A stretch of DNA of 64,000 nt from Longimicrobiales bacterium (GCA_965116905.1 OZ220732.1:2336001-2400000), one strand, 5' to 3'; counted from the first letter of the stretch, positions 4,623 through 62,271 are shown. Numbers and translations are program-made. Notes: generated by a model not told the origin, from the sequence alone.

Positions 4623-4666
4623 CACATCCTCCAGCAACTCCACCCACATCCTCCAGCAACTCCACC
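4623..4666. repeat. Perfect 22-bp tandem duplication CACATCCTCCAGCAACTCCACC x2
   Basis: Read directly at 4623-4644 and 4645-4666, just upstream of the cupin ATG. Confidence 0.9.
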
Positions 4667-4677
4667 GGGACCTCGCC

Positions 4678-5001
4678 ATGGGAATCATCGACTCCACCCG
4701 CCAGCGCCGCTTCTCGCCCGAGAAGATGCAGAAGCTCAACCTGTTCGAGACCGACCAGATGTTCTGCGACATCTACTGCCTGGGGCCCGGGCAGGTCCAG
4801 CACGTCCACACCCATGCGGGCGCGACGAAGTTCTACTATGTGATCGAGGGCGAGGGCCGCTTTACGGTGGGTGAGCGGCGCGAGCGCCTGGGCCCCGGTG
4901 CGGTGGCGTGGTCGGAGCCGGACGAGCCGCACGGCGTGGCGAACGAGTCCGATGGCGACCTGGTTTTGCTGGTGGCGATGGCGCCGAATCCGAATCGGTA
5001 G
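4678..5001 (+). CDS. Cupin domain protein
   Basis: PGQVQHVHTH...YYVIEGEG...HGVAN cupin-2 motifs; ATG 4678. Confidence 0.85.
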   Translation: MGIIDSTRQRRFSPEKMQKLNLFETDQMFCDIYCLGPGQVQHVHTHAGATKFYYVIEGEGRFTVGERRERLGPGAVAWSEPDEPHGVANESDGDLVLLVAMAPNPNR

Positions 5002-5013
5002 GGGGGTCCGCGC

Positions 5014-5562: not shown

Positions 5563-5741
5563 CGGGGCGGGCGGTTCTCTGTCCAGCCCCGGTGCAGGTT
5601 CATCCGCAGACAGTCAACTCGATGCGTGCGATCATTTCAGTTCGCCGCTGTCTGCGTTCTTGCGCTCTCATAGATCATATGATAGGATTTCAGTGCGATA
5701 TACGCCCAAAATAGCAAATTATTCGGTCATGGAGAAATCAA

Positions 5742-39633: not shown

Positions 39634-41040
39634 ATGAGCGACGGATTCGTAGGCGTGCAGATCGGACCCGCCAGCTTCGTGGACGAGGGCGTGGACACGG
39701 TGCTCGACACGCTGCAGGAGCGCGTGGGCGTGAACGTGATCCTGCTTGGCACGGTCAGCTGGCTGGGCCTGAAGATCGGGCGCAGCATCTCGTGGAAGAT
39801 CGACGGCTGGCCCGACCACGGCGTGCCCGAGCCGCTGGAGGTGCAGGGCGGGTCGTACCTGGCGGACCACCCCGAGTTCTACCGCAACACCTCCATCACC
39901 AACTTCCGCGCGCCGGACGAGGGCATGCGGGACCGCGACATACTCGAAATGGTCATCCCCGGGGCCCGTGAGCGCGGGATGAAGGTGATCCCGGAGCTGA
40001 TGGAGCCGCTCTTCAAGTACGCGGGGCACGGGTCGGCCAACACCGTGCAGATCCCCAACCTGGTCCAGTACATGGAGGTGGACTGCCTGGGCCGGATCGG
40101 CGGCGCGCCGTGCCTTGAGAACCCGGACTACCGCACCTGGTGGCACGCGCTGATCGAGGATCACTGCCGGAGCTACGACATCGACGGCATCATGTGGTGC
40201 AACGAGAGGCGGAGCCCACTGGACCAGCTGATCACCGGGATGGCTCCGGGGTGCTTCTGCAGGCACTGCCTGGCGAGCATGGGAGCCGCGGGCATCGACG
40301 CCGAGGCCGTGCGGCGGGCGTGCAGCCTCCTCCACTCCTGGTTCCAGAGGGCGCGCGCGGGCGAGCACTTCACCGACGGCGCGCTGATCACCGGGCTCCG
40401 CACTCTCCTCGAGAACCCCGAGTTCCTGCTGCTCGAGCGGCACTGGGTCCGGCGCAACAAGGACCTGGACCGCGAGCTGTACGGGCTCGTCAAGTGGTGC
40501 GATCCGGCGCTGGAGTTCGGGCTCAACGTGTGGAACCGCAATCACTTCAACCCGTTCCGCAAGGCGCAGTGGCCGTGGGCCGAGACGAAGGACTACGCCG
40601 ACTGGGTCAAGCCGATCACGTATCAGCACCAGTCCGGCGGGATCTACCTGGCCGAGATGAAGCAGCTGCACGCGACCCTGCTGCGCGACCTGGCGCCCGC
40701 CGAGATGACGCCGATCATGTACCGCATCCTGGGGCTCGACGAGGCCCCGTGGGACGAGCTCATGGGTGCGGGAATGCGCCCATCCACGTATGTCGGTGGC
40801 CAGTGCCGCGATACCATCGAGGCGCTGAACGGCGAGCTGCCCGTACTGATGGGGATCGGCGTCGACGCGCCCCGCTCCAGCCCGAACCAGGCCGCCTGCA
40901 CGCCGGAGATCGTGTACGACAGCGTGCACGCGGCATACTCGAATGGGGCGGCCGGCGTCATCTATTCGCCCAACTACGCGAGCATGCGCCTGACCAACCT
41001 CGACGGCGGCGCCCGCGCGCTCGCGGAACTCGGAATCTGA
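39634..41040 (+). CDS. Hypothetical glycoside-hydrolase-like TIM-barrel protein
   Basis: CLENPDYR, YDIDGIMWCNER, CFCRHC pattern as in GHL10/GH42-like barrels; no signal peptide. Confidence 0.6.
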   Translation: MSDGFVGVQIGPASFVDEGVDTVLDTLQERVGVNVILLGTVSWLGLKIGRSISWKIDGWPDHGVPEPLEVQGGSYLADHPEFYRNTSITNFRAPDEGMRDRDILEMVIPGARERGMKVIPELMEPLFKYAGHGSANTVQIPNLVQYMEVDCLGRIGGAPCLENPDYRTWWHALIEDHCRSYDIDGIMWCNERRSPLDQLITGMAPGCFCRHCLASMGAAGIDAEAVRRACSLLHSWFQRARAGEHFTDGALITGLRTLLENPEFLLLERHWVRRNKDLDRELYGLVKWCDPALEFGLNVWNRNHFNPFRKAQWPWAETKDYADWVKPITYQHQSGGIYLAEMKQLHATLLRDLAPAEMTPIMYRILGLDEAPWDELMGAGMRPSTYVGGQCRDTIEALNGELPVLMGIGVDAPRSSPNQAACTPEIVYDSVHAAYSNGAAGVIYSPNYASMRLTNLDGGARALAELGI

Positions 41041-41052: not shown

Positions 41053-42300
41053 ATGCCCGAAGCACCAGCCTGGAAGTTCCAGCCCGTCCTGCAGGATCTG
41101 GCCCCGCGCGATCCCGCGTCGGTGACGCTGAGGGGCCGCGTGATTACGGGGGTGGGGGATGAGGTGATCGAGGACGGCCACGTCACGCTGGCGGGAGGTA
41201 GGATCGCCGCGGTGGGCGAGTGGAGTGCGGCCGCGCCTCCGGCGGACGGCCGGACGGTCGTCGCGACGGGCGGAACGATCCTGGCCGGCCTGATCAACAG
41301 CCACGCCCACCTCGCCTGGGACGGCATCCACGACCTCGCCGCCCAGTCGATGCACGACGCTCCCGAGATCAGCGCCTACAAGGCGGCAGCCAACATGCTG
41401 GCCAATCTGCGCGGCGGGATCACGCTGGTGCGCGACCTGGGGATGAACCGGAGCGGCGAGTTCGCCAGACAGGCGGTGGAGCAGGGCGTGTTCGCGGGCC
41501 CGCGCCTGCTGATCTGCGCGGAGGCGATCGTGCAGACCGGCGGCCACACGTACTGGTGCTGCCGCGAGGCCACCGGGGCCGACGAGATGCGGCGCGCGGT
41601 GCGCGAGCAGGTGAAGGCCGGCGCCGACCTGATCAAGATCATGATGTGCCACGACCGCCTCGAGTTCACCGACGATGAACTCGCGGCCATCGTCGACGAG
41701 ACGCATCGGAACGGGCTGCCGATCACCGCGCACGCGACCTTCGACGCGGCGATCGAGCGGGCGGTCGACTTCGGCATCGACACGGTGGAGCACGGCGGCA
41801 GCATGTCGGACCGCACGATCGGCAAGCTGGTGGAGCGGGGCGTGCCGATCATCACCACCTTCTCCCCGGTCGTGATCCAGTCGAAGCCCGAGGTCGCGCG
41901 CCGGTACAACATCCCCGAGTGGAAGATCCGGGAGCGGCAGCGGGCGGTCGCCGACAAGGGGCGCTACGACGGCCTGGTGCGCGCGGCGCGGGCCGGGGTG
42001 CGCATCGTCTTCGGGACCGACGCGGGAAGCCCCGCCGTGCGGCACGGCGTGGTGGTTCCCGAGATGGAGTTCATGATCGAAGTGGGGGTGGTCGCGGACA
42101 ATCACGCCGCGATCATGAGCGCGACCCGCGAGGCGGCGATCATGAACGGACTGGACGGCCGCATCGGCACGCTGGAGGCCGGGAAGGAGGGGGACGTGAT
42201 CGTCGTGGACGGAAACCCGCTGGACGACCTGAGCGACCTGGAGCGGGTGCGGATGACGTTCGTGCGGGGGTGCTGCCTGTACTCGCGGCCGGGGGTATGA
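41053..42300 (+). CDS. Amidohydrolase family (prolidase-like)
   Basis: GLINSHAH, GADLIK, TAHA, TVEHG, FGTDAG, GTLEAGKEGD. Confidence 0.9.
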   Translation: MPEAPAWKFQPVLQDLAPRDPASVTLRGRVITGVGDEVIEDGHVTLAGGRIAAVGEWSAAAPPADGRTVVATGGTILAGLINSHAHLAWDGIHDLAAQSMHDAPEISAYKAAANMLANLRGGITLVRDLGMNRSGEFARQAVEQGVFAGPRLLICAEAIVQTGGHTYWCCREATGADEMRRAVREQVKAGADLIKIMMCHDRLEFTDDELAAIVDETHRNGLPITAHATFDAAIERAVDFGIDTVEHGGSMSDRTIGKLVERGVPIITTFSPVVIQSKPEVARRYNIPEWKIRERQRAVADKGRYDGLVRAARAGVRIVFGTDAGSPAVRHGVVVPEMEFMIEVGVVADNHAAIMSATREAAIMNGLDGRIGTLEAGKEGDVIVVDGNPLDDLSDLERVRMTFVRGCCLYSRPGV

Positions 42301-43508
42301 CCCGGATGGCCTCGGCCCCGTCCTCGGCCTCGTCCCCGGCACCGTCCCCCCGGCTCGCCGCCCGCGCGGTCAGCGTGAAGTCGAGCTTCCGGACCCGGAT
42401 GCTCGAACTGGCCGCCGGGCTGGACGACATCATCGCGCTGGGCCGGGGCGATCCGGACTTCGAGACGCCGGCCGCGATCGTGGCGGCGGGCGCGGACGCC
42501 CTGATTGGCGGCTACACGCACTACACGCCTCCGCCGGGTCTCCGCGAACTCCGCGAAGCGATCGCGTTTCAGCTGAAACTTAACAATAATGTTAAGTATT
42601 CGGCCGATCAGGTCATTGTCACCAACGGCGCCCAGGAAGCGCTGCTGATCTCCATCCTCGCGCTGGTCGATCCCGGCGACGAGGTGATCCTCCAGGCCCC
42701 GCGCTTCAACGCCTTCGACTACATGGTGAAGCTGGCGGGCGGCCGAATCGTGGACGTGCCGACGCTCGAAGAGGACGACTACGCCCTCAGGGCCGACGCC
42801 ATCCGCACGGTGCTCACAAAGTGTTCGAAACTGCTTGTGATCGCGAATCCGAACAATCCCACCGGCGGACTGACCCCGCGGGCGGAACTTGAGCGCATCG
42901 CGAAGCTGGCGGTGGAGCACGACCTCGTGGTCATCTCCGACGAGATCTACGAGAAGCTGATCTTCGGCGGGGCCGAGCACGTGAGCCTCGGTGCCCTCGA
43001 CGGCATGGGCGACCGGACCGTGACCGTGAATGGCTTTTCCAAGGCGTACGCGATGACCGGGTGGCGCGTGGGATACCTGGCCGCGCCCGCCTGGATGATG
43101 GAGTCGGCCGTCGAGATCAAGCACACGCTGAGCATCTGCACGCCTCCCGCCCTGCAGCGCGGCGCCCTCGCGGCCCTGGAGAGCGGCGACGCGGCGGTGG
43201 CCTCCATGCGGGCCGAGTACGAGCGGCGGCTCGCTCTCGTGCTGAACCGCCTCGACGACATGGGCATCTCGTACGGGCGCCCGGGCGGCGGGATGTACGT
43301 CTACGCCAACATCTCGAGCACGGGGCTGGACGCCGAGACCTTCTGCCTCGAACTGCTGCGCCGGGGACAGGTCATGGTCTTCCCCGGCACGATGTTCGCG
43401 GACCCGGCCAACCGGCACATCCGCATCACGCTCCTGTCGCCGTTCGAGTCCATGGAGCAGGCGCTGGAGCGCATGAAACGATTCGTTGAGCAGGTGCGCG
43501 GGGCGTGA
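42297..43508 (+). CDS. Class I/II PLP aminotransferase (complete active site)
   Basis: [46 protein letters not shown]. Confidence 0.92.
42565..42599. promoter_or_regulatory. Overlapping intragenic palindromes: CGTTTCAGCTGAAACT (parS-like, copy 2) and ACTTAACA-ATAA-TGTTAAGT (motif B, copy 2)
   Basis: Read directly; strongly AT-rich patch within a high-GC CDS. Confidence 0.6.
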
Positions 43509-46309: not shown

Positions 46310-49300
46310 ATGAGGGGTCCGCAGTTTCGTACGGTCGCAGCTGGATTGCTGGCCGGTGTTGCCCTGGCATCCGGCTGCGGCGACGGCGCGACTGTCCCTC
46401 CGCTACTACCACCCGACCCGCCTGGGCCGGCGACGATCACAGTCAGTCCCGCCGCGACCGAGCTCGCTGCATTGCAGGAGACGGTGCAGTTGACTGCCGA
46501 GGTCCGCGACCAGAACGGCCGGATCATGTCCGGGGTCACCGTGGCGTGGGTGAGCACCAGCGTGGGGGTGGCTACGGTGGACGCGGCCGGACTCGTGACG
46601 TCGGTTGCAAATGGTGCCTCTACCATCACCGCGAACGCGGGGGCGGCGACGGGGAGCGCCATGGTAACCGTAGCGCAGGTGGTGAAGGGGATCGAGGTTC
46701 TGCCCTTTCCCGGCAAGGTGTCAGCGGGCGATACACTGCGCCTGACGGCGGAGGCCTGGGACGCGAACGGGTTCACGGTGCCCGGCAGCGAATTCACATG
46801 GTCGTCGAGCGATACCGCCGTCGCCACCGTGGATGGATCGGGACTGGTCCACGGCATTGTCGAGGGCTTGATCACCATCACGGCCACGTCGGCGGGAGTG
46901 CAGGGCGCCGCGCCGATCACGGTAGCCCACCCGGACTGGGGCCCGCTCGCTGCGCTCTACAAGGCCGCGGAGGGTCCGGTCTGGATCGAAGACGATGGCT
47001 GGATGTCGGATCGACCGATCGGCCAATGGCACGGAGTTACTACCGGGCCCGATGGTCACGTCACCGCGCTGGAGCTTGCCAGGAGCAATTTGACCGGGAC
47101 GATTCCGGCGGAACTGGGCCGCCTGTCACACCTTGAGACCCTGAATCTCGAGTGGAATCGGTTGCGGGGGCCGATTCCGCTCGAACTGACCGGGCTGCAC
47201 AACCTCAGGAGCCTGCGCCTGGGCGTCAACCGCCTGACCGGCGAGGTCCCGGCCGAGTTGGCCAACCTGGCGAACCTCGAGGATCTGCGCCTGAACCACA
47301 CGCTCCTCACCGGCCGGATCCCGTCCGAGCTGAGCAACCTGTCCAACCTCACGAGGCTCAGTGTCCAATCGAATGACCTGACCGGCCTGGTTCCTTCCGC
47401 TCTCGTGCGACTCGAACGGCTCCGCTTCTTCCACTTCGCGGACAACGAAGATCTCTGCATCGCCGACGAAACCGATTTCATCGGGTGGCTGGCCCAGCTC
47501 GACGTTGCGCTCGGACCCGTGTGCAACGAAGACGACAGGAAAGCGCTCGTGTCTCTCTACGAGGCCACCGGAGGAAGCGACTGGATCCGTTCCGACGGCT
47601 GGCTGGAAGACGTGCCGGTGCGCGAATGGCACGGTGTGACCACGGATTCGGTGGGACGGGTCCTCGGACTCGATCTGGCCGACAACGCACTTGCGGGTCG
47701 CCTGCCGGAGCTGTTGGCGCCGCTTGCGAGCATGACTTCGCTTGGGCTGGACGGAAACGAGGGACTGACCGGTCCCTTGCCGCTGACGCTGTCCGCGCTG
47801 TCGCTCGAAGCGTTGAGATACCGGAACACGGGCCTTTGTGTCCCCGCCGCCGAGTCGTTTGGCGGGTGGCTCGCGGCCATCCCCTCGCACGAGGGCACCG
47901 AAACCGAGTGTGCGTCCCTGTCGGACCGGGAGACCCTCGAACTCCTGTACGGTGCTGTCGGTGGCGCTGAATGGAAAGACGACGGGAACTGGCTTTCCAG
48001 CCAGCCCCTCGGCGAGTGGACCGGAGTGGAAGCCGACACCGCGGGCCGCGTGGTTGCGCTGCGACTTCCCCGCAACGATCTGGCGGGCCGCATTCCACCC
48101 CAACTGGGCTATCTGGACCAGCTCCGCGAACTGGACCTGTCAGGCAATCGCCTGGAGGGACCGATCCCGGCCCAGCTGGGCGACCTGTCCGGCCTCACGC
48201 TGCTCAATCTCGGCCAGAACGAACTGGAAGGACCGATCTCGCCGCGATTGGGCGATCTGACCAGCCTTTCCCAGCTGCTTCTGTGGGCCAACGAGCTGGA
48301 GGGACCGATCCCACCGGAGCTGGGCAGGCTGACCAACCTGCTCGTGCTGGGACTCGGCATAAACGAACTGGAGGGACCGATTCCGCCGCAGCTGGGCGAC
48401 CTTGCCAACCTCTACTTTCTGTACCTGGACGGGAATCGCCTGGAGGGACCGATCCCGTCGCAGCTCAGGAACCTGTCGCGGTTGCACGAGTTCATCCTGA
48501 ATCGCAATCGGCTGACGGGGTCGATTCCTTCGTGGCTCGGCAGCCTGCCGAACCTGACGCGCATCGGGCTCGGCGAGAACTGGCTGACGGGGCCGATTCC
48601 GCCCGAGCTGGGCAACCTGGCTGGCCTGACCGAGTTGGTCCTCGGTCGCAATTTTCTGTCGGGGTCGATTCCGTCGAGACTGGCCAGCCTCTCCGCATTG
48701 ACGTACCTGGACCTCGGACCGAACAGGCTGACGGGAGGAATCCCATCGGAATTGGGAGCCCTGTCCAGCCTGGAACGCCTCAACCTCAGCGGGAATGAGC
48801 TGGCCGGCAGGATTCCCGCCGAACTCGGTGATCTGGCCGGGTTGCGGTTGCTGTCGATGGCGGGGAACCAGCTGTCCGGTCCACTCCCGTCCGTCCTTGG
48901 GGGACTTACCCGTCTGCGGCGGCTCCACCTGACCGACAATGCCGAAGTGTCCGGGACCCTGCCTTCGAGCCTGACCGCTCTGGGCGAGCTTGAGGAGCTG
49001 GTTCTGACGGGTACCGGTCTGTGCGCTCCCGCGGACACCGCCTTCCAACACTGGCTGTCGGAAGTGAAGGTGGCGCGCGTGCCAGGCTGTGCGGTGGACG
49101 CGGGGTCGGCGGCGTACCTGACGCAGGCGGTGCAGTCGTCCGACTTCCCGGTTCCCCTGATCGCCGGCAGAGCGGCGCTGCTCAGGGTTTTCGTGGTGGC
49201 GTCGCGTCCCGGCAGCGCAGGCATCCCGAGGGTCCGGGCGACCTTCTACCTTGACGGAGTCGAGAGTCATGCGGTCGACATTCCGGGCTCGGGGGCTCCC

Positions 49301-50597
49301 ATCCCGACCGAGATCGAACTCGCGCGGAGCTCGCTGCAGAGTTCGGCCTACGCCCTGATCCCCGGATCGGTGATCCAGCCGGGGTTGGAGATGGTGTTGG
49401 AGATCGATCCCGACGGAACGCTGCCCCCCGAACTGGGCGTGACGAGGCGGATTCCCGAGGAGGGCAGGGCGCCGGTGCAGGTGGAGTCGGTGCCCAGCCT
49501 GGACATGACGGTGATTCCATTCCAATGGGCGCCGAAGCCCGATTCGTGGATTGTCGATATCGCCACAGGCATGGCCGAAAGCCCGCACACCCACGAAATG
49601 CTTGGCGACGTGCGCGCCATGCTCCCGGTGGCCGATATCGACGTGGCAGTCCACGAAGCCGTCCTGACCTCGACGACCAGATCCCTCGACCTGCTTCGCG
49701 AGACGCATCTGATTCGGACGTTGGAAAAAGGGACCGACTACTACCTGGGGATCCTGCCCGAGCACGTTGGCGGGGCCCTGTCAGGTGTCGCGTTCCTCGG
49801 TTTCCGCATTGGCTATTCGGTTGCCGATCCCTTTGTGATCGCGCACGAACTCGGACATAACCTGGGTCTTTATCATGCGCCGTGCGGAGGCGCCGGCGGT
49901 CCGGATCCCGCATTCCCCCGGACAGACGGTTCGATCGGCTCCTGGGGATTCGACTTTCGTGACGGCGGCAGGCTGGTATCGCCGCGGACCCGGGACGTGA
50001 TGTCCTATTGTGGTCCTCCGAACTGGATCAGCGAGTTCAGCTTCACCAAGGCCCTGAACCATCGGCTCGAGGGGGATGGGCGCCGGAGCCCGCTGGCCCG
50101 GACCGCCGCCGGCGCGCCCACGCGCAGTCTGATTCTGTGGGGTGGCGCTGACGAGGACGGGAGTCCGTTTCTGGAGCCCGCGTTCGTGACTGACGCCGCG
50201 CCCAGCGTGCCGCAGTCCGACGGTGACTACCAACTCGTCGGCCGCAGCGCCACCGGCGACGAACTGTTTTCGCTGAGTTTCGACATGCCGGAGCTGGCAG
50301 ACGCGGAGGCGGGGTCGTCTTTCGTCTTCGCGCTGCCGGTGCCGGCCGAGTGGGTGGGCGTACCCGAGAGCATGACAACTATCCGGCCCTGGCGGATCGG
50401 CCACGACCGACCGGACGACCGACCGGCCCATGGCCATCCTGCGCGATTCGGCGAGCGGCGAAGTGCGAGGGGTGCTGCGTGGTGAGGACGCGATGGACGT
50501 GATGCGCATGGCGGCCGAGCCCGTCGGGCCCACCGGTCCGCGTGTGCAGGTATTGTTCAGCCGCGGGATACCTGACGACCGGGACTGGCGGCCCTGA
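46310..50597 (+). CDS. Large lipoprotein: Ig-like (Big_2) x2, plant-type LRR modules, zincin metallopeptidase; apparent +1 frameshift near 50377
   Basis: LASGC lipobox, WSSSDTAVATVD, many LxxNxLxGxIPxxLGxL repeats, HELGHNLGLYH. The annotated frame ends at 50485, but the shifted frame gives LSGPGGS..RPMAILRD..VLFSRGIPD to TGA 50597. Confidence 0.85.
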
Positions 50598-50612: not shown

Positions 50613-52082
50613 CTACTCCCGCCAGGGATACGGCGGCCTGCGCAGGTGCCAGTCCGTCTCCCGCTGGTACGCCATGCCCAGATCCAGGACGCTCTGGTCG
50701 TCCATCGGCGACCCGACGACCTGCAGCGACAGCGGCAGGCCGTCCTCGTCGAAGCCGCAGGGGATCGCCAGGCCGGGGTGGCCGACCAGGTTGGCGATGT
50801 AGTTCAGGCGGGGGGTGTTTGCGCTCACGTCGTCCGGCGGTTCCCACTCGTTGCGCGCGGGGATCGGCCACCCGCCCTGCACTTCGCGCATGGCCGCCCC
50901 GTTGGGCCAGGTGGGCGCGATCACCGCGTCGTAGCGCGACAGGATCTCGTCGGCCTCGCGCACGAGCTGGTTGCGGATCCGCTGCGCGGTCAGGTAATCG
51001 GCCGCGGGCATCATGCGCCCTGCCATCCAACCGGCGCGCCGGTCTTCGTTGAACGAGAACATGCCGGCGGCGCTGCCGTCGTCGAAGAGCGACTTGAAGT
51101 TGGTGCCGCTTTCGACGGTGACGATGGTCGTGAAGAGCGCGCCCGTCGGCCGCAGCGGCAGCTCGATGTCCTCGACCTCGACCCCCATCTGCGCGAAGAC
51201 GTCCAGCGCTTCCTGGAAGACTCGGCGGGTCGTCTCGGAGCCCGACAATTCGAACTCGGCCCGGTGGACGCCGAGGCGGCGGCCGCGCATCGGGCCCGGG
51301 TCGGGGCGGAAGACGAAGGGCCGGTCGACGGTGGCGTTGTCGCGGGGATCGTGCGCCGCGATTTCCTGCAGGATGTGCCCGCAGTCCTCGGCCGAGCGGC
51401 CGACGGGCCCGATCTTGTCCAGGCTCCACGACAGCGCCATGCAGCCGAACCGGCTCACGCGGCCGAAGGTGGGGCGGAGGCCGGATGCGCCGACGGCGGA
51501 AGCCGGGAAGACGATCGAGCCCCCGGTTTCCGTGCCGATGCCGAAGCCGATCAGTCCCGCCACGGCGGCCGAGACGGTGCCGCTCGACGACCCGAAGCTG
51601 GTGCGGTCGAGTTTCCAGGGGTTGAGGGCGGAGCTCGTGTTGCCGCCCGCGAATTCGCCCAGTGACATCTTGGCCATCATCACGGCGCCGGAGGATTCCA
51701 GCAGGTCGATCACGGTGGCGTTCCGGTCCGGGACGCGGTCCCGGAAGATCCCCGAGCCCCACGTGGTGCGGATTCCGCGCGTGTCGAGCAGGTCCTTCAC
51801 GCCGTAGGGGATGCCGTGCAGGATGCTGCGGCGCCGGCCCGCGGCGAGCTCGGCGTCGGCGCGCGCCGCGGCCTCGAGCGCGTGTTCGTGCGCAATCGTG
51901 ACCATGGTGGCGAGCTTGCCGCCGTGATCGGTGCGCGGCTCGCTCGGCAGGTCGAACGGCGGCACGTCGAGGGCGTCCGCGCGATCCAGGTAGGCCTGCG
52001 TGAGGTCGACGGAGCTCACCGCACCGCTCGCCAGCCCGTCGGCGAGCTCACTCACCGTGAGGAAGAGGACGTCCTCCTGCAC
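50613..52082 (-). CDS. Amidase signature family enzyme
   Basis: HGIPYGVKD (Lys), GSSSG, GTETGGSI (Ser), GLRPTFGRVSR, GLPLSLQ; GTG start after GGAGG. Confidence 0.92.
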   Translation of the reverse strand: MQEDVLFLTVSELADGLASGAVSSVDLTQAYLDRADALDVPPFDLPSEPRTDHGGKLATMVTIAHEHALEAAARADAELAAGRRRSILHGIPYGVKDLLDTRGIRTTWGSGIFRDRVPDRNATVIDLLESSGAVMMAKMSLGEFAGGNTSSALNPWKLDRTSFGSSSGTVSAAVAGLIGFGIGTETGGSIVFPASAVGASGLRPTFGRVSRFGCMALSWSLDKIGPVGRSAEDCGHILQEIAAHDPRDNATVDRPFVFRPDPGPMRGRRLGVHRAEFELSGSETTRRVFQEALDVFAQMGVEVEDIELPLRPTGALFTTIVTVESGTNFKSLFDDGSAAGMFSFNEDRRAGWMAGRMMPAADYLTAQRIRNQLVREADEILSRYDAVIAPTWPNGAAMREVQGGWPIPARNEWEPPDDVSANTPRLNYIANLVGHPGLAIPCGFDEDGLPLSLQVVGSPMDDQSVLDLGMAYQRETDWHLRRPPYPWRE

Positions 52083-52085
52083 GGC

Positions 52086-52364
52086 TCAGCCCCTCCAGAA
52101 GACGGTGAGGGGCGGCTCATCCGCGTCCAGCGGGAACTCCCGCAACTCGCGCTGTACGTTGATCATGTTGGCGAGCGCGGCGCGGAGCCGGTCGAGCTCT
52201 TCGGCCTCTTCGTAGATGCCCCGCGGGCCCTGGTGGTCGAGGAGGGTGCGGGCGGTCGCGGGGGAAACCTCGCCCGTGTCGGCCACCTCGCCGCACGCCT
52301 GCTGCCACAGCAGAGCCATGGCGCCGGCTCCCGCGGTGGCGAACTGCCGTCGGTCCATCGTCAT
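52086..52364 (-). CDS. Small Tat-signal protein, GatC/AtzG-like amidase partner
   Basis: MDRRQF twin-arginine motif, QQAC, helical core ending LREFPLDADEPPLTVF; 92 aa. Confidence 0.6.
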   Translation of the reverse strand: MTMDRRQFATAGAGAMALLWQQACGEVADTGEVSPATARTLLDHQGPRGIYEEAEELDRLRAALANMINVQRELREFPLDADEPPLTVFWRG

Positions 52365-52393
52365 CGGCCTTCCCTTTTCCACTCCGTTACCTT

Positions 52394-52457
52394 GATCCGG
52401 CCCATCACCGGTCCGGCCCATCACCGGTCCGGCCCATCACCGATCCGGCCCATCACC
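52394..52457. repeat. 16-bp tandem repeat GRTCCGGCCCATCACC x4 in divergent intergenic region
   Basis: Units at 52394, 52410, 52426 and 52442; no spacers. Confidence 0.92.
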
Positions 52458-53807: not shown

Positions 53808-54809
53808 ATGGCCACGACGATGCAAGCCCTCCACATCGAGCCCCTGCCAGAGTGGATCCGCGACCTCTTCGAACGCACCGCGCAACAAGCCGGCGTGGAG
53901 ATCACATGGGGCGGGGAACTGGACGGGCCCGAACTGGCCCGCGCCGCCGAGCGGATGGACGTGCTCATGACGGCCATGAGGCCTGTCGATGGCGACCTGA
54001 TCCGGGCTGCGAGGGCGCTGCGCCTGGTGCAGGTGCAGGGACGGGCGCCCTGGGCGGTGGACGCGGAAGCCGCGGCCGCCGCGGGTGTGCGGGTTTCGAT
54101 GCTCCCGCACAGGGGCGCGATCGCGGTTGCCGAGCAGACCATCGCGCTCATGCTCGGCCTCTACCGCAAGCTGGTTCCGGGCCATTTGGGCACCCGAAAC
54201 GCGGACTACAGGGATCTCGAGGTCGAGCCGGTCCGCACGACGGAACGGAAGATCGCGTTCAACTGGCTGCGCTACCCCGATGTCCACCAGCTGCACGGCC
54301 GCGTGCTCGGCCTGGTGGGGCTGGGAGGCATCGGCCTCGAAGTGGTGCGCCGCGCCCGCGCGTTCGATATGGAGGTCGTGTACTTCAAGCGCTCGCCGCT
54401 GCCGCGAGAGCACGAGCGGATGGCGGGTGTGCGGTATCTCCCTCTGCATGAACTGCTCGCCGCGAGCGACATCGTGAGCCTGCACGCGCCCCACACGGAG
54501 CACACCGAGCACATGATCGACAGCGCGGCGCTACGCTCCATGAAGCGCGACGCCATTCTGGTCAACACCGCACGCGGCGGACTCGTCGACGAAGCCGCAC
54601 TCCTCGACGCGCTCAAAGCGGGGCAGATTGCGGGCGCCGGGCTGGACGTGTTCGTCGACGAACCGCTGCCCGAGGACAGCCCGCTGCGCGACGCGCCCAA
54701 CGTGCTCTTCTCGCCGCATGTGGGCGGAGGCACCGGGGGCGGCCAGGCTGGCATGGCCAGGGACGTGGTGGCTAACCTCGTAGCAACCGCATCGACAGGA
54801 ATCCCATGA
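53808..54809 (+). CDS. D-isomer-specific 2-hydroxyacid dehydrogenase
   Basis: GLVGLGGIG, SLHAP, VNTARG, LDVFVDEP, SPHVGG. Confidence 0.9.
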   Translation: MATTMQALHIEPLPEWIRDLFERTAQQAGVEITWGGELDGPELARAAERMDVLMTAMRPVDGDLIRAARALRLVQVQGRAPWAVDAEAAAAAGVRVSMLPHRGAIAVAEQTIALMLGLYRKLVPGHLGTRNADYRDLEVEPVRTTERKIAFNWLRYPDVHQLHGRVLGLVGLGGIGLEVVRRARAFDMEVVYFKRSPLPREHERMAGVRYLPLHELLAASDIVSLHAPHTEHTEHMIDSAALRSMKRDAILVNTARGGLVDEAALLDALKAGQIAGAGLDVFVDEPLPEDSPLRDAPNVLFSPHVGGGTGGGQAGMARDVVANLVATASTGIP

Positions 54810-56035
54810 TACGAGAACCGGTCCTGGTCCTGGCGTTCATGCTGGCCGTGGTGGCCTTTGCGCGCTGGCTTGAGGAGCGCTACGAGCCGATCAGGAAGAT
54901 CAGTTCCGCAGTGGTGTGCACGCTGCTAGGGATCACGCTCGCCAATGTGGGTGTGATCGAGCACACGGGGTCGGCGCACGAGGGCGTGTTCACTTTCGCG
55001 ATCCCCTACGCGATCGTGCTCGTGATCATGGGGACGCACATGAAGGAACTGGCCCATGCGGGGCGGCCGCTGCTGATCGCCTACCTGGTGGCCTGCGGCG
55101 GCAGTTTGGTCGGAGGTGCGGTGGCGGGCGCGACCATGGCTGGGTGGGTGGGTCCGGAGACCTGGAAGCTGGCCGGGGCGTTCTCGGCGGCCTTCGCGGG
55201 CGGCGGGATGAACTTCGCGGCCGTTGGGCAGGGGCTCGAGGTCGAGCCGAGCACCTTCGCCGCCGCGGCCCTCGCCGACAACATGTCAACGGTGCCGTAT
55301 CTGCTGCTGCAGGTGTGGCTGGCCGGGGTGCTGGCCGCAATGTTCCTGCGCCGCTGCGGTCCGGGTCGGGCTGCGGCTTCGTCCGGCGGCACCGGCGCAG
55401 AGAATGACCGGGAGCCGGACGAAGAGGCGATGCGTCGCCGCTGGACCGATACGGACATCAGCATCACCGACTTTGCCGTTCTCGGTGCGCTCCCTCTTGC
55501 GGCCCTGTGGGTGGCGCGCCTTGTCAGCGATGCCTTCGGCGCGGCACTTGCCACCATGCCGGAAGCCGCGCCGCTGTACGGACTGGTGGGCTTCCTGAGC
55601 GAGGTGCCGGAGGTCCTGTGGCTCACCACCATCGCGCTCATCGTGGCCCAGCTACCGTGGGTCCGGAAGCTGCGGGGCGCCGAAGTGCTCTCCTATTTCG
55701 CGCTGCACATCTTCTTCATCGCGCTGGGAGCGGCCTCCGATCTGGCGACGGTAGTCGACGCCGGCCTGCCCATCTTCAGCTTCATGATCGTGATCATCGG
55801 CATTCACGTCGTCCTTGCGTACGGGCTGGGGTGGCTGTTCCGTATCGACCTGCCTACGGTCTCCATCGCCAGCCAGGCGGCGATCGGCGGTCCCGGATCC
55901 GCGCTTGCGATCGGAATGGCGATGAAGTGGCACAGGCTGGTGGCGCCGGCAGTGATCGTCGGGATCTTCGGGTACGCGCTGGGGAACTACCTGGGCTTTG
56001 CGTGCGCCCGATTCGTAAACGCGCTCCTGGGCTGA
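54806..56035 (+). CDS. DUF819 family membrane protein (second paralog)
   Basis: AGGGMNFAAV and ASQAAIGGPGSA motifs; many TMs. Confidence 0.85.
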   Translation: MIREPVLVLAFMLAVVAFARWLEERYEPIRKISSAVVCTLLGITLANVGVIEHTGSAHEGVFTFAIPYAIVLVIMGTHMKELAHAGRPLLIAYLVACGGSLVGGAVAGATMAGWVGPETWKLAGAFSAAFAGGGMNFAAVGQGLEVEPSTFAAAALADNMSTVPYLLLQVWLAGVLAAMFLRRCGPGRAAASSGGTGAENDREPDEEAMRRRWTDTDISITDFAVLGALPLAALWVARLVSDAFGAALATMPEAAPLYGLVGFLSEVPEVLWLTTIALIVAQLPWVRKLRGAEVLSYFALHIFFIALGAASDLATVVDAGLPIFSFMIVIIGIHVVLAYGLGWLFRIDLPTVSIASQAAIGGPGSALAIGMAMKWHRLVAPAVIVGIFGYALGNYLGFACARFVNALLG

Positions 56036-56036
56036 C

Positions 56037-56849
56037 GTGAGACTCAAGGGCATCGACGCCCTCGTCACGGGAGCCGGGCGCGGGCTGGGCAGCGGCATCG
56101 CTGCCGCGCTTGCGGCGGCGGGTGCGCGAGTTTGGCTGGCGGCGGAGGTGCCGGAAGAACTCGATTGGACCGCGACGCGGATTCGCGATGCCGGCGGGCG
56201 GGCGGAGGTCTGCGTGGCCGACCTGGCACGCGAAACCGAACGCGACCGCCTGGCGCGACGGGTCACCCGCGAAGCCGACAACCTGCGCGTGATCGTCAAC
56301 AACGCCGCGATACTGGAGCGGCAGCCGCTGGAAGCGGTGGACCAAGAGCACTGGGACCGAACCATGCGCGTGAACCTCGAAGCGCCGGTCTTCCTGACGC
56401 GCGACCTGCTGCCCGTGCTGCAGCGCCGCGGTGGGTCGGTGATCAATGTGTCGTCGCGTGCGGGCGTCGAGGGCTTCCCCGCACAGATCGCGTACTGCGC
56501 GTCCAAGTTCGGGATCGAGGCGTTCACCCGCTGCCTGGCCCTGGAGCTGGCCGGGTCGAGCGTCAGCGTGAACGCGGTCACTCCCGGCATCCATCTCAAG
56601 CCGACCTCGCTTTTGCGGCGCGATGCGGAGGCAGCCGACGCCGCCACCCGGGCGCGCTGGGAAGACCCCGCGATCCTCGGTCCCGCGTTTGTCTTCCTGG
56701 CGGGACTGCGCGGCGAGGTCAGCGGGTGCCGCTTCGACGCGCATGTGCTCACGCAGGCGTTGCAGGAGTCGGGCCCGGACGGAGTCGTCGACCGCGCGAA
56801 CGAGGTGGCGCACGAGGTGGCCGAGCACGTGCAGGAGAGCGTGCCTTGA
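56037..56849 (+). CDS. Short-chain dehydrogenase/reductase
   Basis: TGAGRGLG, VNNAA, NVSS, YCASK. Confidence 0.9.
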   Translation: MRLKGIDALVTGAGRGLGSGIAAALAAAGARVWLAAEVPEELDWTATRIRDAGGRAEVCVADLARETERDRLARRVTREADNLRVIVNNAAILERQPLEAVDQEHWDRTMRVNLEAPVFLTRDLLPVLQRRGGSVINVSSRAGVEGFPAQIAYCASKFGIEAFTRCLALELAGSSVSVNAVTPGIHLKPTSLLRRDAEAADAATRARWEDPAILGPAFVFLAGLRGEVSGCRFDAHVLTQALQESGPDGVVDRANEVAHEVAEHVQESVP

Positions 56850-57496
56850 AGATCGAGGCCGCGCTGTCCTCTCGGGCACGTGCCGCGCTGGAGGAAGGGC
56901 GCCCGAGCGTCGACGGCGTCCCGGCCATCGCGGTGGCTCCGCCGGCCGCGCCGGCACCCGGGCTGCTGGACAGCTTGCGCCACCACCTGCTTGAGGGCGA
57001 AACCCATTATCCGGATCGCCCGGGTATGGCCGAACTGCGCCGTCTCGTCGGCAACGCCCTCCCGAATGTCGGCTATGCGGCACGGGGCCCGGACGGCGTC
57101 CTGATTACTGCCGGCGAAGGCGAGTCGCTGTTCGTGACGCTGCTCGCCGTGGGACCGGACGCCGAGGTCCACCTTCTCGGAGGCGCGAATGACCACGGTC
57201 CCCTGCGGCGGTGGATGAACGCTCGCGACAAGGGAGGAGCCACCGTTCACGCCCTCGGCGACCGGCTGTTCGCGGCCGGCGCGGCACCGGGCGACCGTCT
57301 GGACAACCCCGGCGACCACGCCATCGTGATCGGGTCCCTGGACGGCCTGGTCGCCATGCGCCCCTTCCGTCTCGGCTTCGTGGCGGCGCCGCCGGACACC
57401 CTGCAAGGAATCACGAAGTGGAAGCAGGCGTCGTCGATCTGCTCGCCCGCGCCCTCGCAACGGGCGGCGCTGTGGGCGCTGGGGGTGCGACCGTGA
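56846..57496 (+). CDS. Truncated, catalytically dead class I aminotransferase-like protein
   Basis: Retains ETHYPDRPGMAELR, ITAGEGESL, FRLGFV, KQASSICSPAPSQRAAL. Lacks NPxNP, DEIY, the PLP lysine and the C-terminal domain. TTG start overlaps the upstream stop. Confidence 0.7.
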   Translation: MKIEAALSSRARAALEEGRPSVDGVPAIAVAPPAAPAPGLLDSLRHHLLEGETHYPDRPGMAELRRLVGNALPNVGYAARGPDGVLITAGEGESLFVTLLAVGPDAEVHLLGGANDHGPLRRWMNARDKGGATVHALGDRLFAAGAAPGDRLDNPGDHAIVIGSLDGLVAMRPFRLGFVAAPPDTLQGITKWKQASSICSPAPSQRAALWALGVRP

Positions 57497-58677
57497 CGGC
57501 GGCACAGAAGGGCTCGGCGGCGTTGCGCAAGGGCGAGCGCGGGACCTCGCTCCGCTACCGCATGATGGCGCTGGCCCGAACGCGTGAAGACGTGATCTCA
57601 CTCGGTCGCGGCGATCCCGACATCGACACGTCCGCGGCCATCGTGGAAGGAGGACTCGCTCGGTTCGCGGAGACTGCGGACATTGGCGCCGGCCCCGTCC
57701 GCGGACTCGCCGCGCTGAGACATGGCATCGCCCGCCGCTACGCAAATGAACGGGGCATCGCAATCGACCCGGACCGCGAGATCGCCATCACCAACGGCGC
57801 GCAGGAGGGACTTTTCCTTGCCATGCTGGCGATGGTCGATCCGGGCGACAGGGTCGCGTGTCAGGATCCTCGCTACAGCTCCTACGACCAGGCGATCGGT
57901 GTCGCGGGGGGAGAGATCGTCCCGGTTCCGACCGGGGGCGATCGACCGTTCCTGCTGGGAGCCGATGAGCTGCGCGAACATGCCCGAAGCGCGAAGATGC
58001 TGGTCTTCGTCAACCCCTCCAATCCCACCGGCGCCTGCGTGGACGGAGAAGGAGTCGAGGCCCTCGCCCGTGCCGCCGCCGACCTGGACCTGCTCGTCCT
58101 TTCCGACGAGATCTACGAGGACGTGGTGTTCAACGAAACGCCCTTCCGCTCGTTTCTCGCGCCCGATGGCGCGCGCGACCGATCCGTCGTGCTTTCCGGC
58201 TTCTCCAAGGCCTATGCGATGACCGGCTTCCGTGTAGGCTATCTGGTCGGACCACCGGCGTTCATCGACGCGGTGGAGGCGCTCAAGAGCACGACTTCCG
58301 GGGCCTGTCCGGTGTTTTCCCAGTGTGCCGCACTCGCCGCGCTCGAGGCGGATCCGGATCCGCGGCCTGCGTACCTGGCACGCTATCGGGCGAGACGCCA
58401 GGCGCTTCTCGACGGTTTCGCGAGGATCGCAGTCCCGCACGGTCCGCACGGTGGCGGCCTGTTCATGTGGGCGGACATATCGCGCTTCCGCATGGATGCG
58501 GAGACCTTCTGCTATCGCCTGCTGGACGAAGCGGGCGTGCTCATGTTCCCCGGCAACGCCTTCGGCCGGCGCTGGCGCGGGTGGGTGCGCGTGTCCCTGT
58601 TGGCTCCGGAGGCGCACATTCGCGAGGCGATGGACCGGATCGAAGAATTCACGGGCGGCCTGGTGGCGGGAGACTGA
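57493..58677 (+). CDS. Class I/II PLP aminotransferase lacking the trans-acting Tyr
   Basis: [42 protein letters not shown] overlap with upstream gene. Confidence 0.9.
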   Translation: MTAAQKGSAALRKGERGTSLRYRMMALARTREDVISLGRGDPDIDTSAAIVEGGLARFAETADIGAGPVRGLAALRHGIARRYANERGIAIDPDREIAITNGAQEGLFLAMLAMVDPGDRVACQDPRYSSYDQAIGVAGGEIVPVPTGGDRPFLLGADELREHARSAKMLVFVNPSNPTGACVDGEGVEALARAAADLDLLVLSDEIYEDVVFNETPFRSFLAPDGARDRSVVLSGFSKAYAMTGFRVGYLVGPPAFIDAVEALKSTTSGACPVFSQCAALAALEADPDPRPAYLARYRARRQALLDGFARIAVPHGPHGGGLFMWADISRFRMDAETFCYRLLDEAGVLMFPGNAFGRRWRGWVRVSLLAPEAHIREAMDRIEEFTGGLVAGD

Positions 58678-58767
58678 CGGCACTCGCTATGATGCCCCGC
58701 GCCGCCGCGATACCAGGACCCGAACAGCCAGAGGAACCGACGTGACACTCAGGAGCCACCGGGGGTT

Positions 58768-60183
58768 GTGAGCGAGTTGCTGATCGCCGGGGGCACGGTC
58801 GTCACCGCGGACCGCATGGAGCGGGCCGACGTGCTTGTCCGTGACGGCCGGATTGCGGCGGTCGCGCCGAACCTCGCCGAGGGCGACCCATCCAGCCATG
58901 GCGCCGCCCGCATCGTCGACGCGCGCGGCCACTGGGTCATGCCCGGCGGCATCGATACGCACACCCACCTCGCCCACCCGATCGACCGCCTGGGAATCAA
59001 CACCGCCGACGACTTCTTCACGGGTACCGTAGCCGGCGCGTGCGGCGGCGTCACCGCGATCATCGACTTCTCCCTCCAGCGTCGCGGCGAATCGATGCTC
59101 TACGCCCGGGACCGCCGCCTCGCCGAAATCGAGCCCGACGCCATCATCGACTACGGCTTCCACACGATTGTCACGGATGTACGTGACGATGTGATGACCG
59201 AAATCCCTGCCCTGATTGACGATGGATTCCCGTCGTTCAAGATTTACATGACCTATGGGGACAAGATCGTCGACGACGCGGGTCTGATCAGGCTGCTCGA
59301 GGCCACCGGGGCCAACGGGGGCCTCGTCTACGTGCACTGCGAAAACGACTGCGCGGTCACCCACATGATCGAGCGGCACCTGTCGGCCGACAAGACCGGG
59401 CCGGCGTATCACGCCCCCAGCCGCCCGCCCGAGGTCGAGTCGGAGGCCACGCACCGCGCGATCATGCTGGCCGGTCTGGCGGGAGCGCCGCTGTGTATCG
59501 CGCACGTGACGTCGGCGGGGGCCGCGCGGCACGTCGCCGACGCTCGGGCCCAGGCCCAGCCGGTTGCGGCCGAGACCTGTCCGCAGTACCTGGTCCTCGA
59601 CGACTCGGTCTACGACCCCGACGGGGGGTTCGAGGTCGCCAAGTTCGTCTGCAGTCCCCCGATGCGCGCCGCCGAACACCGCGACGTCCTCTGGGAGGCG
59701 CTGGCCGCCGGCTCAGTCCAGCAGGTGTCCTCGGACCACGCCCCGTTCCGCTATCACGACCAGAAGACGACCGGGCGCGGCGACTTCACGCGTATCCCCA
59801 ACGGCCTGCCCGGCATCGAGACCCGGCTGCCGCTGCTGTTTGCCTACGGCGTGAAGACCGGCCGTCTGTCGCCGCAACAGTTTGTCGCGGTCACGGCCAC
59901 CAACCCGGCGCGCATTTTCGGCCTCCATCCCCGCAAGGGAACGCTTGACGTCGGCGCGGATGCGGATCTGATCGTCGTGGACCCTGCCGCGGAGGTCGCA
60001 ATCGATGCGGCCGGACTCCACTCGGCCGTCGACTACAGCCCTTACCAGGGAATGAAGGCGTGCTTCCCCACCTGGACCTTCTCGCGCGGCGAAGCGATCG
60101 TGGAGCGCGGCGAGCCCGTGGCGCAGCGGGGAAGGGGACGGCTGGCCGAGCGCGGGACGATCAACCCCGCGGCGCTTCCCTGA
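58768..60183 (+). CDS. hydA: Dihydropyrimidinase / D-hydantoinase
   Basis: PGGIDTHTH, SFKIYMTY, VHCEN, AETCPQY, CSPP, SSDH, IPNGLPGIE. Confidence 0.9.
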   Translation: MSELLIAGGTVVTADRMERADVLVRDGRIAAVAPNLAEGDPSSHGAARIVDARGHWVMPGGIDTHTHLAHPIDRLGINTADDFFTGTVAGACGGVTAIIDFSLQRRGESMLYARDRRLAEIEPDAIIDYGFHTIVTDVRDDVMTEIPALIDDGFPSFKIYMTYGDKIVDDAGLIRLLEATGANGGLVYVHCENDCAVTHMIERHLSADKTGPAYHAPSRPPEVESEATHRAIMLAGLAGAPLCIAHVTSAGAARHVADARAQAQPVAAETCPQYLVLDDSVYDPDGGFEVAKFVCSPPMRAAEHRDVLWEALAAGSVQQVSSDHAPFRYHDQKTTGRGDFTRIPNGLPGIETRLPLLFAYGVKTGRLSPQQFVAVTATNPARIFGLHPRKGTLDVGADADLIVVDPAAEVAIDAAGLHSAVDYSPYQGMKACFPTWTFSRGEAIVERGEPVAQRGRGRLAERGTINPAALP

Positions 60184-61168
60184 CCTCCCGCACCTCCTCG
60201 ATGATCCCGAAGAAGCAGCACCACTCGCCCGCGAGCACCGCCGGGCGGGACCGCAGCCCGAACACGACCCCGTCGACGGGCGCGACCACCTCCGCCTGCA
60301 CCTCGCCGTAGAGGTCGTAGACGCGCCCAAGCGGTGTGCCGGCCGGAATCTCCGTCTCGAACGGCACGTCCGCGCTGCCGACCCACATGCCGGAGGCAGG
60401 AGCCAGCAGCGCCCGCTGGTGGCCCATCCGCAGGCGCCCCGCGTACCGCGCCTCGCCGTCAAGCATGGCGTAGTGCCGCATGACGTTCACATAGCTTCCC
60501 GCCAAATCCTCGGCCACCGCGTGAAAGTCCGCAGTCAGCGTGCGACAGTTGCCGCCGAGTTCGACCGTGATCCCCGCCTTGCCGAGTTCCGCGATCTTCG
60601 AAGAGGGGTTGGCGCCGCCTACGCCGCTCCGAAAGACCAGGTCCCACTGAGGGCCCATCGCCGCGGCGAGCTCGAGACTGGGCGGGTTGTCGGCCGCGAA
60701 GATCATGTGCGCCAGGTACGAGTGCTCGCCGCCGGAGTGGATCGCGATCTGCAGGTCGCAGGCGTCGCGCATCGCACCCCAGTGCGCCCACGCCGCGCGC
60801 TCGGTGGGATAGCCGTCGGCGCGGCCGGGATAGATCCGGTTCATGTCGTGCGAAAAGGTGTCGAGCGGATCGCCGCGCTTGCCGGCCACGAACGCGGGCA
60901 CGTTCATCGCCGGCACGCCGACCACCGTGCCCCGCAACGCCTTCGGATCCAGGTCCTCGAAGAGCTTGAAGATCGACAGCGCGCCTTCGGGCTCGTCGCC
61001 ATGGGTTGCTCCGTTTATCCAGAGGACAGGACCGTCCGACTCACCCCGGCAGACCAGGACCGGGATCTCGCTCGTCCGTCCGGTGGGGTCGATGCCCACC
61101 GGGATCGCGCCCTTGGCGTGCGTACCGTGCGCCGCGGTTGCCGTCCCGACCCGGAACGCCGGCCTCAT
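60161..61168 (-). CDS. Succinylglutamate desuccinylase/aspartoacylase (M14) family deacylase
   Basis: THGDE, DMNRIYPG, IHSG, TVELGG, C-terminal barrel-sandwich hybrid (VVAPVDG). Confidence 0.88.
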   Translation of the reverse strand: MRPAFRVGTATAAHGTHAKGAIPVGIDPTGRTSEIPVLVCRGESDGPVLWINGATHGDEPEGALSIFKLFEDLDPKALRGTVVGVPAMNVPAFVAGKRGDPLDTFSHDMNRIYPGRADGYPTERAAWAHWGAMRDACDLQIAIHSGGEHSYLAHMIFAADNPPSLELAAAMGPQWDLVFRSGVGGANPSSKIAELGKAGITVELGGNCRTLTADFHAVAEDLAGSYVNVMRHYAMLDGEARYAGRLRMGHQRALLAPASGMWVGSADVPFETEIPAGTPLGRVYDLYGEVQAEVVAPVDGVVFGLRSRPAVLAGEWCCFFGIIEEVREVREAPRG

Positions 61169-62271
61169 CCCGCCACCGCCTCCGGCGCGAACGGCACCCC
61201 GAGCTCGGCGGCGAGTTCGCGCAGCCCCCTGACCGTCTCCCCGTCCACCGGGACGCCACGCTCCAGCCGCCGCCGCGCGCGCTCCTGCTCGGCCTGCCCG
61301 GGGAGCTGCACCGGCCGGGACGGGTCGATCGGCGGCGCGGACAGCACGTCGCCGATCAGCGCCTCGAAGCGCTCGGCGAAGCGCTGCCGGGGCATGAACG
61401 CGTCGATGGAGATCGCGATCATGGTGTGGGCCACGTCGTAGTTTGCGTCATCCTGAAATACCTGCGCCCCGAAGAGCGACCCCGTCAAGACGCCCGTGAG
61501 GATGTCGGTGACCAGGCTGAGCCCGTACCCCTTGTAGTCGCCGATCGGCAGCAGCGGCCCGTCCATCGCGGCGCGCGGGTCGGTGGTGCGCTCGCCGTCG
61601 GGGGTGAGCGCCCAGTGTTCGGGCATCGGCAGCCCGGCGCGCTCCAGCCACCGCATCATGCCCTTGCCCGACTGCGTAAGCGCCATGTCGAGAACGATGG
61701 GATCCCGCCCTGCGGCCGCGTCACGCGCGCGCGTCCCCCGCGGCACCGCGATCCCCCACGGGTTCGTGCCCAGCACGGGTTCCGCGGCGCCCCAGGGAGC
61801 CATCTCCGCCCCCGCGTTGGTCATCGCGATCCCGATCAGGCCCGCGTCGGCCGCGCGCTTTGCGTGGTACCCCGCGATCCCGAAGTGATTGCTATGCCGC
61901 ACGGCCACCATGGCGATCCCGGCCCCGCGTGCCATCTCGATCGACCGGTCCATCGCGCGGCGCCCGGCCACGTAGCCCAGCCCCCTGTCCGCGTCCAGCA
62001 GCGCCGTCGCGGCGCCCTCCCGTACCCACCGCATCGACGCTGCGGGCCTGATTCCGCCGTTTCGCATCCGGCGCGCGTAGCGGAACAGCTTTTCGAGCCC
62101 TTGTCCCTGTCCCGGATGCCACCAGAGCGACGCGGTGATCACGCCGTCGGCATTGACGCGCGCCTCCTCCTCCGTCGCGCCCAGCGCCCGCAGCACCGCC
62201 TCGGCGAACGCCCTGAGCGACGCCTCGCTGAAGCGCTCGACCGCGACGCGATCGTCGAGCCGGTAGGTCAA
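61165..62271 (-). CDS. Ldh_2 family oxidoreductase (malate/L-lactate/ureidoglycolate/L-sulfolactate dehydrogenase type)
   Basis: SNHFGIAG, LGTNP, LDMA, LLPIGDYKGYGL, LPG; TTG start. Confidence 0.88.
   Translation of the reverse strand: MTYRLDDRVAVERFSEASLRAFAEAVLRALGATEEEARVNADGVITASLWWHPGQGQGLEKLFRYARRMRNGGIRPAASMRWVREGAATALLDADRGLGYVAGRRAMDRSIEMARGAGIAMVAVRHSNHFGIAGYHAKRAADAGLIGIAMTNAGAEMAPWGAAEPVLGTNPWGIAVPRGTRARDAAAGRDPIVLDMALTQSGKGMMRWLERAGLPMPEHWALTPDGERTTDPRAAMDGPLLPIGDYKGYGLSLVTDILTGVLTGSLFGAQVFQDDANYDVAHTMIAISIDAFMPRQRFAERFEALIGDVLSAPPIDPSRPVQLPGQAEQERARRRLERGVPVDGETVRGLRELAAELGVPFAPEAVAG

Follow-up and report, generated by a model that had tools for sequence, protein, structure and literature searches.

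The pair and its neighbours

The window, that is, the whole stretch of DNA analysed here, comprises 64,000 nucleotides from a Longimicrobiales bacterium (GCA_965116905.1 OZ220732.1:2336001-2400000). It carries two overlapping genes for aminotransferase-like chains, called beta (upstream) and alpha (downstream), in a run of putative catabolic genes that also includes a complete paralog. The features are as follows, in window coordinates.

42297..43508, + strand: the cluster's complete paralog, a class I aminotransferase with THYTPPPG and KHTLSICTP
53808..56035, + strand: D-2-hydroxyacid dehydrogenase and DUF819 membrane protein, upstream in the same gene run
56037..56849, + strand: SDR oxidoreductase, overlapping the start of beta
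56846..57496, + strand: beta (partner) chain, 216 aa, a large-domain remnant without the small domain
57002..57025, + strand: THYPDRPG of beta, residues 53-60, with Tyr55 aligned to the Tyr70 equivalent
57422..57448, + strand: KQASSICSP of beta, residues 193-201, the second partner-side loop
57493..58677, + strand: alpha (predicted catalytic) chain, 394 aa, PF00155, without the Tyr loop
57670..57696, + strand: ETADIGAGP of alpha, variable and indel-rich, in place of the THY loop
58768..60183, + strand: dihydropyrimidinase/hydantoinase (TIGR02033, 516.9 bits against a cut-off of 393)
60161..61168, - strand: AstE/AspA-type deacylase, a neighbour of the pair
61165..62271, - strand: Ldh_2-family 2-hydroxyacid dehydrogenase, a neighbour of the pair

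The beta gene begins with a TTG codon that overlaps the stop codon of the SDR gene, and the beta and alpha reading frames overlap by 4 nt (GTGA). A programmed frameshift between the two was rejected because a 4-nt overlap is the usual pattern of coupling and is present between other genes of the run. An assembly artefact is ruled out by contigs of two other sequencing runs that cross the junction without gaps, one of run X2 covering 55979-59648 with 1 difference and one of run X1 covering 55748-57900 with 37 differences. Run X1 is sponge metatranscriptome RNA and contains the whole region as contigs, at a flat depth, so that it does not demonstrate transcription of the region. In runs X4 and X5, next to nothing of the region was found.

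The alpha chain

In aspartate aminotransferase (AspAT), Tyr70 and the 290s loop of each active site are contributed by the other subunit. PMC6715241 describes Tyr70 as an interface residue that binds the phosphate of PLP.

The alpha chain matches PF00155 with 198.2 bits (gathering cut-off 19.7). The translation of 57493-58677 contains NPSNP (N177), DEIY (D205 and Y208), SKAY (K239, codon 58207-58209) and KSTTSGACP, and it also retains Y128, R247 and R366. NPSNP, DEIY and SKAY are the motifs reported in an earlier note on this DNA, which had also pointed to DIGAG in place of THY and to STTSGAC in the second loop; both are present. No NCBIfam family is reached above its cut-off. The best is the GntC cyclodehydratase model NF041364, with 259.5 bits against a cut-off of 415, and the complete paralog scores higher on it (324).

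The loss of the Tyr is a family trait. None of the 119 scorable relatives of alpha (120 matches listed, 50-92% identical) has a Tyr70 equivalent, and the corresponding segment is variable and indel-rich among them. A comparison of 148 Lys-bearing aminotransferases from the fetched loci, dereplicated at 90%, gives a clean division: a Tyr five residues before a conserved Gly is found in 92/92 unpaired enzymes vs 0/56 paired ones. Genes shorter than 300 aa at locus ends were left out of this count, among them that of locus L215, an exception to the division in which a truncated catalytic gene keeps the Tyr behind a Lys-less partner. The alpha chain of L137 has a Tyr that is one position off. Since the paired genes are related, falling in three starred subclades with an unresolved base, the 0/56 may represent perhaps one to three losses.

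The residues that alpha contributes to its own site are kept. The equivalents of Lys258, Asp222, Asn194, Tyr225 and Arg266 are present in all 56 paired chains, and that of Arg386 in 54 of the 56, with gaps in the other 2. The second loop of the paired alphas has a Gly at the position of the partner's Ile (54/56) and a Pro at that of the partner's Cys (47/56). With a dN/dS of 0.07 for residues 262-276, the loop is conserved and is thus reshaped rather than decayed. This corrects one element of the earlier note's proposal, a division into a catalytic and a minimal subunit, which the sequences support. Such strong conservation would fit a homodimer as well, and it therefore weighs against the one-site reading developed below.

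The beta chain

The coupled short ORF lacks the catalytic Lys, DEIY and NP, and it ends before the small domain. As the earlier note had it, THYPDRPG and KQASSICSP are nevertheless kept, and their counterparts stand in the complete paralog at 42297. No Pfam family matches beta at E 0.01. The best PDB sequence match of beta is 2z61 (E 5.9e-9), and a profile of its relatives matches solved class I aminotransferases with E 2.4e-23. The predicted fold has a pLDDT of 74, and aminotransferases head the Foldseek matches that were listed (best E 3.9e-6, TM 0.46). By both kinds of match, beta is homologous to the large domain of aminotransferases. These matches to solved class I enzymes, together with 212 relatives found among 7597 candidates, rule out a chance ORF.

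Relatives of beta are labelled Gemmatimonadota. In an alignment of the best 120 of the 212 with the query, T53-H54-Y55-P56, R58-P59-G60 and the segment from W192 to P201 are invariant, with KQASSICSP unchanged in 121/121; residues 104-159 are mostly variable in sequence and in length. Among 89 diverse partners, T53, H54, Y55, R58, G60, E93, K193, C199 and Q205 are invariant (89/89). The dN/dS values, pooled over 225 pairs from 29 loci with dS 0.05-1.0, follow the same division, at 0.14 for residues 40-100, 0.17 for residues 159-216 and 0.60 for the middle. It is thus the partner-side segments that are under purifying selection.

Beta's own cofactor site is predicted to be dead because a Gly occupies the Lys position (113/121) and acidic residues, Glu91 (121/121) and Asp166 (109/121), stand at positions that correspond, by alignment, to phosphate-binding ones of complete enzymes; these counts again refer to the best 120 of 212 relatives plus the query. 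What this Lys-less chain retains is Tyr55, Lys193 and Cys199, residues that the alignment assigns to the partner's site. Chains of the beta type range from full length down to about 160 aa, and databases annotate them as hypothetical proteins or as aminotransferases.

Gene pairing and distribution

Directly downstream of 116 of 120 partner-type ORFs (a redundant count) lies an aminotransferase gene, the other 4 being at locus edges, and an in-frame start codon overlaps the beta stop codon by 4 nt in 82 of 92 distinct pairs. Since the partners were picked by the presence of THY and the absence of Lys, counts of these two traits among them are circular, and tests made from the alpha side matter more. 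With loci retrieved by the alpha alignment alone, alpha occurs in 20 of 201 genomes of the same family, and beta lies upstream in 20/20. A contig scan with the alpha alignment was dominated by generic motifs, and its 80 loci were reused as an unbiased control. They contain five Tyr-less genes, from three Chloroflexota, one Acidobacteriaceae and one Trueperaceae, and all five have beta upstream; the 74 dereplicated unpaired enzymes of this set all keep the Tyr.

Within the genus, beta, alpha and the complete paralog all occur in the same 16 of 36 genomes, with beta frames free of stop codons in every one of the 16 matches, and neither gene of the pair was found in the other 20. A genome has either the entire cluster, with the complete paralog, or none of it, so that co-occurrence by itself is weak evidence; the pattern shows gain or loss of the cluster and not a specific link between the two genes. 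Across 301 genomes of the phylum, strong matches are confined to one family. In Deinococcota, the pair is present in 7 of 251 genomes, and in all seven a Tyr-less alpha comes after the partner. With one query in Chloroflexota, a partner was found in 1 of 301 genomes, the query genome itself, and three other matches were complete enzymes. Scanning contigs with only the short protein yielded no confirmed locus, and a plasmid search with a distant partner gave no match.

The pair is found in Gemmatimonadota, Chloroflexota, Acidobacteriota and Deinococcota; it is real, conserved and widespread. The earlier note had allowed that the short ORF might be an unconserved, decaying duplicate. Instead, it is conserved and under purifying selection, adjoins a Tyr-less gene wherever the flank is readable, and is sometimes fused to it.

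Fusions, intermediates and history

A profile search of 1.84 billion representative sequences gave 464 matches, of which 150 were listed. Proteins without the Lys that keep the Tyr, recognized by regular expressions that may miss variants, number 75 at 200-320 aa, 41 at 321-420 aa and 8 below 200 aa. Natural fusions have an N-terminal module without Lys and a C-terminal module with Lys but no HY (P0229, P0292/P0389, P0295, P0307, P0351 and P0373). The linkers of P0292/P0389, P0295 and P0307 are short, with no Met ahead of the catalytic part. P0229 has a Met just ahead of it and may be a read-through rather than a true fusion. An AlphaFold2 model of P0295 (655 aa) has a pLDDT of 88 and a pTM of 0.92; this single, uncontrolled model of a relative, rather than of the present pair, would imply a confident relative placement of the two modules, yet it may mirror likeness to solved homodimers. 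Another fusion, P0256 (616 aa), has no THY and a His at the catalytic Lys position, and it looks decayed.

Several loci hold forms that could be intermediates. L179 (1747-4315) has a tandem of two complete aminotransferases and is a candidate for the ancestral state; in trees, its upstream gene falls among the partners and its downstream gene among the catalytic chains. L215 (1384-3432), the second pair of genome G341, has a full-length Lys-less partner followed by the Tyr-keeping catalytic gene mentioned above. Reciprocal loss at full length is seen in L163, and the partners of L130 and L135 are only about 160 aa long. At the end of locus L145 (6458-7261), aminotransferase-like frames lie on both strands of one stretch, which is perhaps a chimeric contig.

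A quick tree of 74 rows places L215 and the downstream gene of L179 with the paired catalytic chains in a single group (support 90), which contains the three starred subclades and is nested with complete paralogs in a clade of support 99. In a tree on 132 shared columns, 41 partners, Lys-bearing members included, form one clade (95) that is sister to the catalytic group (90). Removal of the Tyr-loop and Lys columns lowers the support for partner monophyly to 78 (from 95) and leaves the catalytic group unresolved, with two changes needed. Given this drop in support, a single origin is compatible with the trees and is not shown by them. The history is read most simply, if not conclusively, as one old tandem duplication followed by repeated shortening and fusion. 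The paralog at 42297, to which a copy in a Longimicrobiales genome is 91% identical, lies outside both the partner and the catalytic groups in all three trees and is not the direct parent of the pair; these trees also speak against a recent origin of the pair by duplication of this paralog.

It is tempting to propose a fuller scheme, about which we are slightly more doubtful than convinced. A single old tandem duplication would have been turned stepwise into a one-site enzyme, with the steps surviving in L179, in L215, in L163, in partners without a small domain, in the 160-aa partners of L130 and L135, and in the single-chain fusions. In this scheme, the small chain would amount to a minimal module for half a site, would determine which substrate is used and might be exchangeable. 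If so, the 556-aa fusion P0389 would be a monomeric class I aminotransferase.

A proposed one-site heterodimer

The residues kept and lost in each chain, the constant gene order, the purifying selection and the natural fusions can all be read directly in the sequences. We consider it highly probable that alpha and beta, two paralogous chains with a PLP lysine on only one of them, form an alpha-beta aminotransferase that has a single active site. On this reading, PLP would be bound by K239, D205, N177, Y208 and R247 of alpha, whose R366 would hold the substrate carboxylate, and alpha would also supply the small domain. In place of a second subunit, beta would bring Tyr55 to the PLP phosphate and lend its K193-C199 loop to the substrate pocket. 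There would then be one active site for each alpha-beta pair.

The most serious competitor on assembly is that alpha is an active homodimer that tolerates the loss of the Tyr, with beta as an optional activator or a subunit that changes specificity. Alpha keeps all of its own-side residues and a conserved second loop, L215 retains the Tyr in spite of its Lys-less upstream partner, and the Y70F mutant of E. coli AspAT reportedly keeps some activity; work on Y70F is cited in PMC12429042 and PMC11286295. Yet no readable flank of alpha is without beta (20/20 and 5/5), the Tyr loop is variable and indel-rich, and the second loop has the Gly and Pro described above where pocket-lining side chains are usual. 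We regard the homodimer as improbable. That alpha is instead completed by the paralog at 42297-43508, beta doing something else, is less probable still: the paralog carries the two loops itself and shares its 16 genomes (of 36) with the pair, but it is beta that overlaps alpha and is fused to it in other genomes, and the conserved residues of beta are the partner-side ones. As for a decaying duplicate or a frameshift artefact, the missing Pfam match, the hypervariable middle (dN/dS 0.60) and the decayed look of P0256 would suit it, but the 212 relatives with their invariant motifs, the dN/dS of 0.14-0.17, the gap-free contigs from other runs, the absence of stop codons in 16 same-genus matches and the occurrence in four phyla refute it, and we hardly give it credence.

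A further alternative concerns the chemistry only and is compatible with the alpha-beta enzyme. The heterodimer may be real and catalyse another PLP reaction, such as an elimination, a decarboxylation or a cyclisation. The failure of alpha to reach any NCBIfam cut-off (GntC, 259.5 vs 415) and the invariant Arg58 that beta has of its own (89/89) could be taken in this sense. However, alpha keeps every transaminase-type residue, both the paralog and the fusion model find their closest solved structures among aromatic and aspartate aminotransferases, and 2-hydroxyacid dehydrogenases are common neighbours. Another reaction is thus unlikely, though less so than an alpha homodimer.

Gene neighbourhood and likely reaction

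Neighbours were counted in the 53 pair loci longer than 5 kb, which are related and partly redundant. An SDR is present in 35 of the 53, a hydantoinase-like amidohydrolase in 32, an AstE/AspA deacylase in 31, an Ldh_2 protein in 29, a DUF819 protein in 22, a VOC protein in 19 and a D-2-hydroxyacid dehydrogenase in 18. From this neighbourhood, it is possible, though the balance lies somewhat against it, that the pair carries out a catabolic transamination of an unusual amino acid freed by the neighbouring hydantoinase and deacylase, and that the resulting 2-oxo acid passes to the hydroxyacid dehydrogenases. The order of steps would be ring opening, deacylation to the amino acid, transamination, and redox conversion of the oxo or hydroxy acid. 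A search for the substrate with the ergothioneine-pathway ErtD, allantoinase, DoeB, ComC and AllD models gave scores that were all below cut-off.

The surroundings hold other genes worth recording. An amidase at 50613-52424 (-) in the window is preceded by a small ORF of 112 aa and adjoins a phenylacetate-CoA-ligase-like gene; amidases of this type lie near the pair in 15/53 loci. The cluster also has a 468-aa ORF at 39634-41040 (+) with no Pfam or NCBIfam match, and L172 encodes a similar protein close to its pair. A gene at 46310-50485 (+), which separates the two halves of the catabolic cluster, encodes a protein of 1391 aa with a lipoprotein-like start, leucine-rich repeats and, read by eye, a HELGH motif. 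Locus L021 has tandem paralogs at 3631-4710 and 4707-5579 that are 35% identical and belong to no NCBIfam family. Tandem paralogs of this type are next to the pair in a number of loci of the Chloroflexota type (L154, L163, L172 and L175), had no tblastn match in the window's genome, and are possibly a second heteromeric pair.

Relation to known enzymes

Class I aminotransferases are textbook homodimers. The solved structures that best match the paralog, the partner and the fusion model are 1dju and 1gd9 (P. horikoshii aromatic aminotransferase), 1bkg (T. thermophilus AspAT) and 2z61 (M. jannaschii MJ0684), class I enzymes whose subfamily we take to be I-gamma-like. They have the same fold and the same own-side residues as the chains described here. 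They are homodimers with two sites, with Lys and Tyr on every chain, whereas here the Lys and Tyr sets are split over two genes. The partner profile matched 36 sequences in the PDB, all of 370-475 aa, with no short chain of the partner type among them. Among the structures listed, the nearest are aromatic, aspartate and prephenate aminotransferases, which does not place the pair with the serine palmitoyltransferase (SPT)/alpha-oxoamine synthase group.

Duplicated fold type I halves are known from the glycine decarboxylase P-protein, in which one of GcvPA and GcvPB has the Lys and the two are encoded by two genes or fused; this is a decarboxylase of another subfamily, and both halves are of full size. 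SPT is membrane-bound, and its LCB1 is a full-length chain. According to PMC3794620, LCB1/LCB2 is a heterodimer of paralogs with the PLP lysine on LCB2 only, and a single active site is a working hypothesis. The alpha-beta pair resembles it as a predicted fold type I heterodimer of paralogs with one Lys chain, here known from sequence, and differs from it in subfamily and reaction. Unlike LCB1, the partner here is a chain of 160-280 aa that lacks the small domain, and the Tyr loop is missing in turn from the catalytic chain. For ACC synthases, PMC5258695 describes active sites shared between subunits, as judged by complementation of mutants, and natural heterodimers; that pairing is facultative and between full-length isoforms, and all functional ACS are there called homodimers.

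The earlier note's author did not know of such an arrangement in this family. Our literature search, which covered mainly open-access papers, likewise found no one-site heterodimer among class I aminotransferases, but one-site heterodimers of fold type I are already known in SPT and glycine decarboxylase. Given the LCB1/LCB2 precedent, the new elements are that the enzyme is a predicted class I aminotransferase, that loss has been reciprocal and that the partner has shrunk to an extreme degree.

For annotation, the pair carries a warning: the catalytic gene resembles that of an ordinary aminotransferase and is predicted to fail when expressed alone. The extant intermediates would form a series for studying subfunctionalisation and the entrenchment of heteromers, and a natural single-chain version would be useful for structural work and engineering. 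The pair would also show which residues, about 160 of them, suffice to complete an active site.
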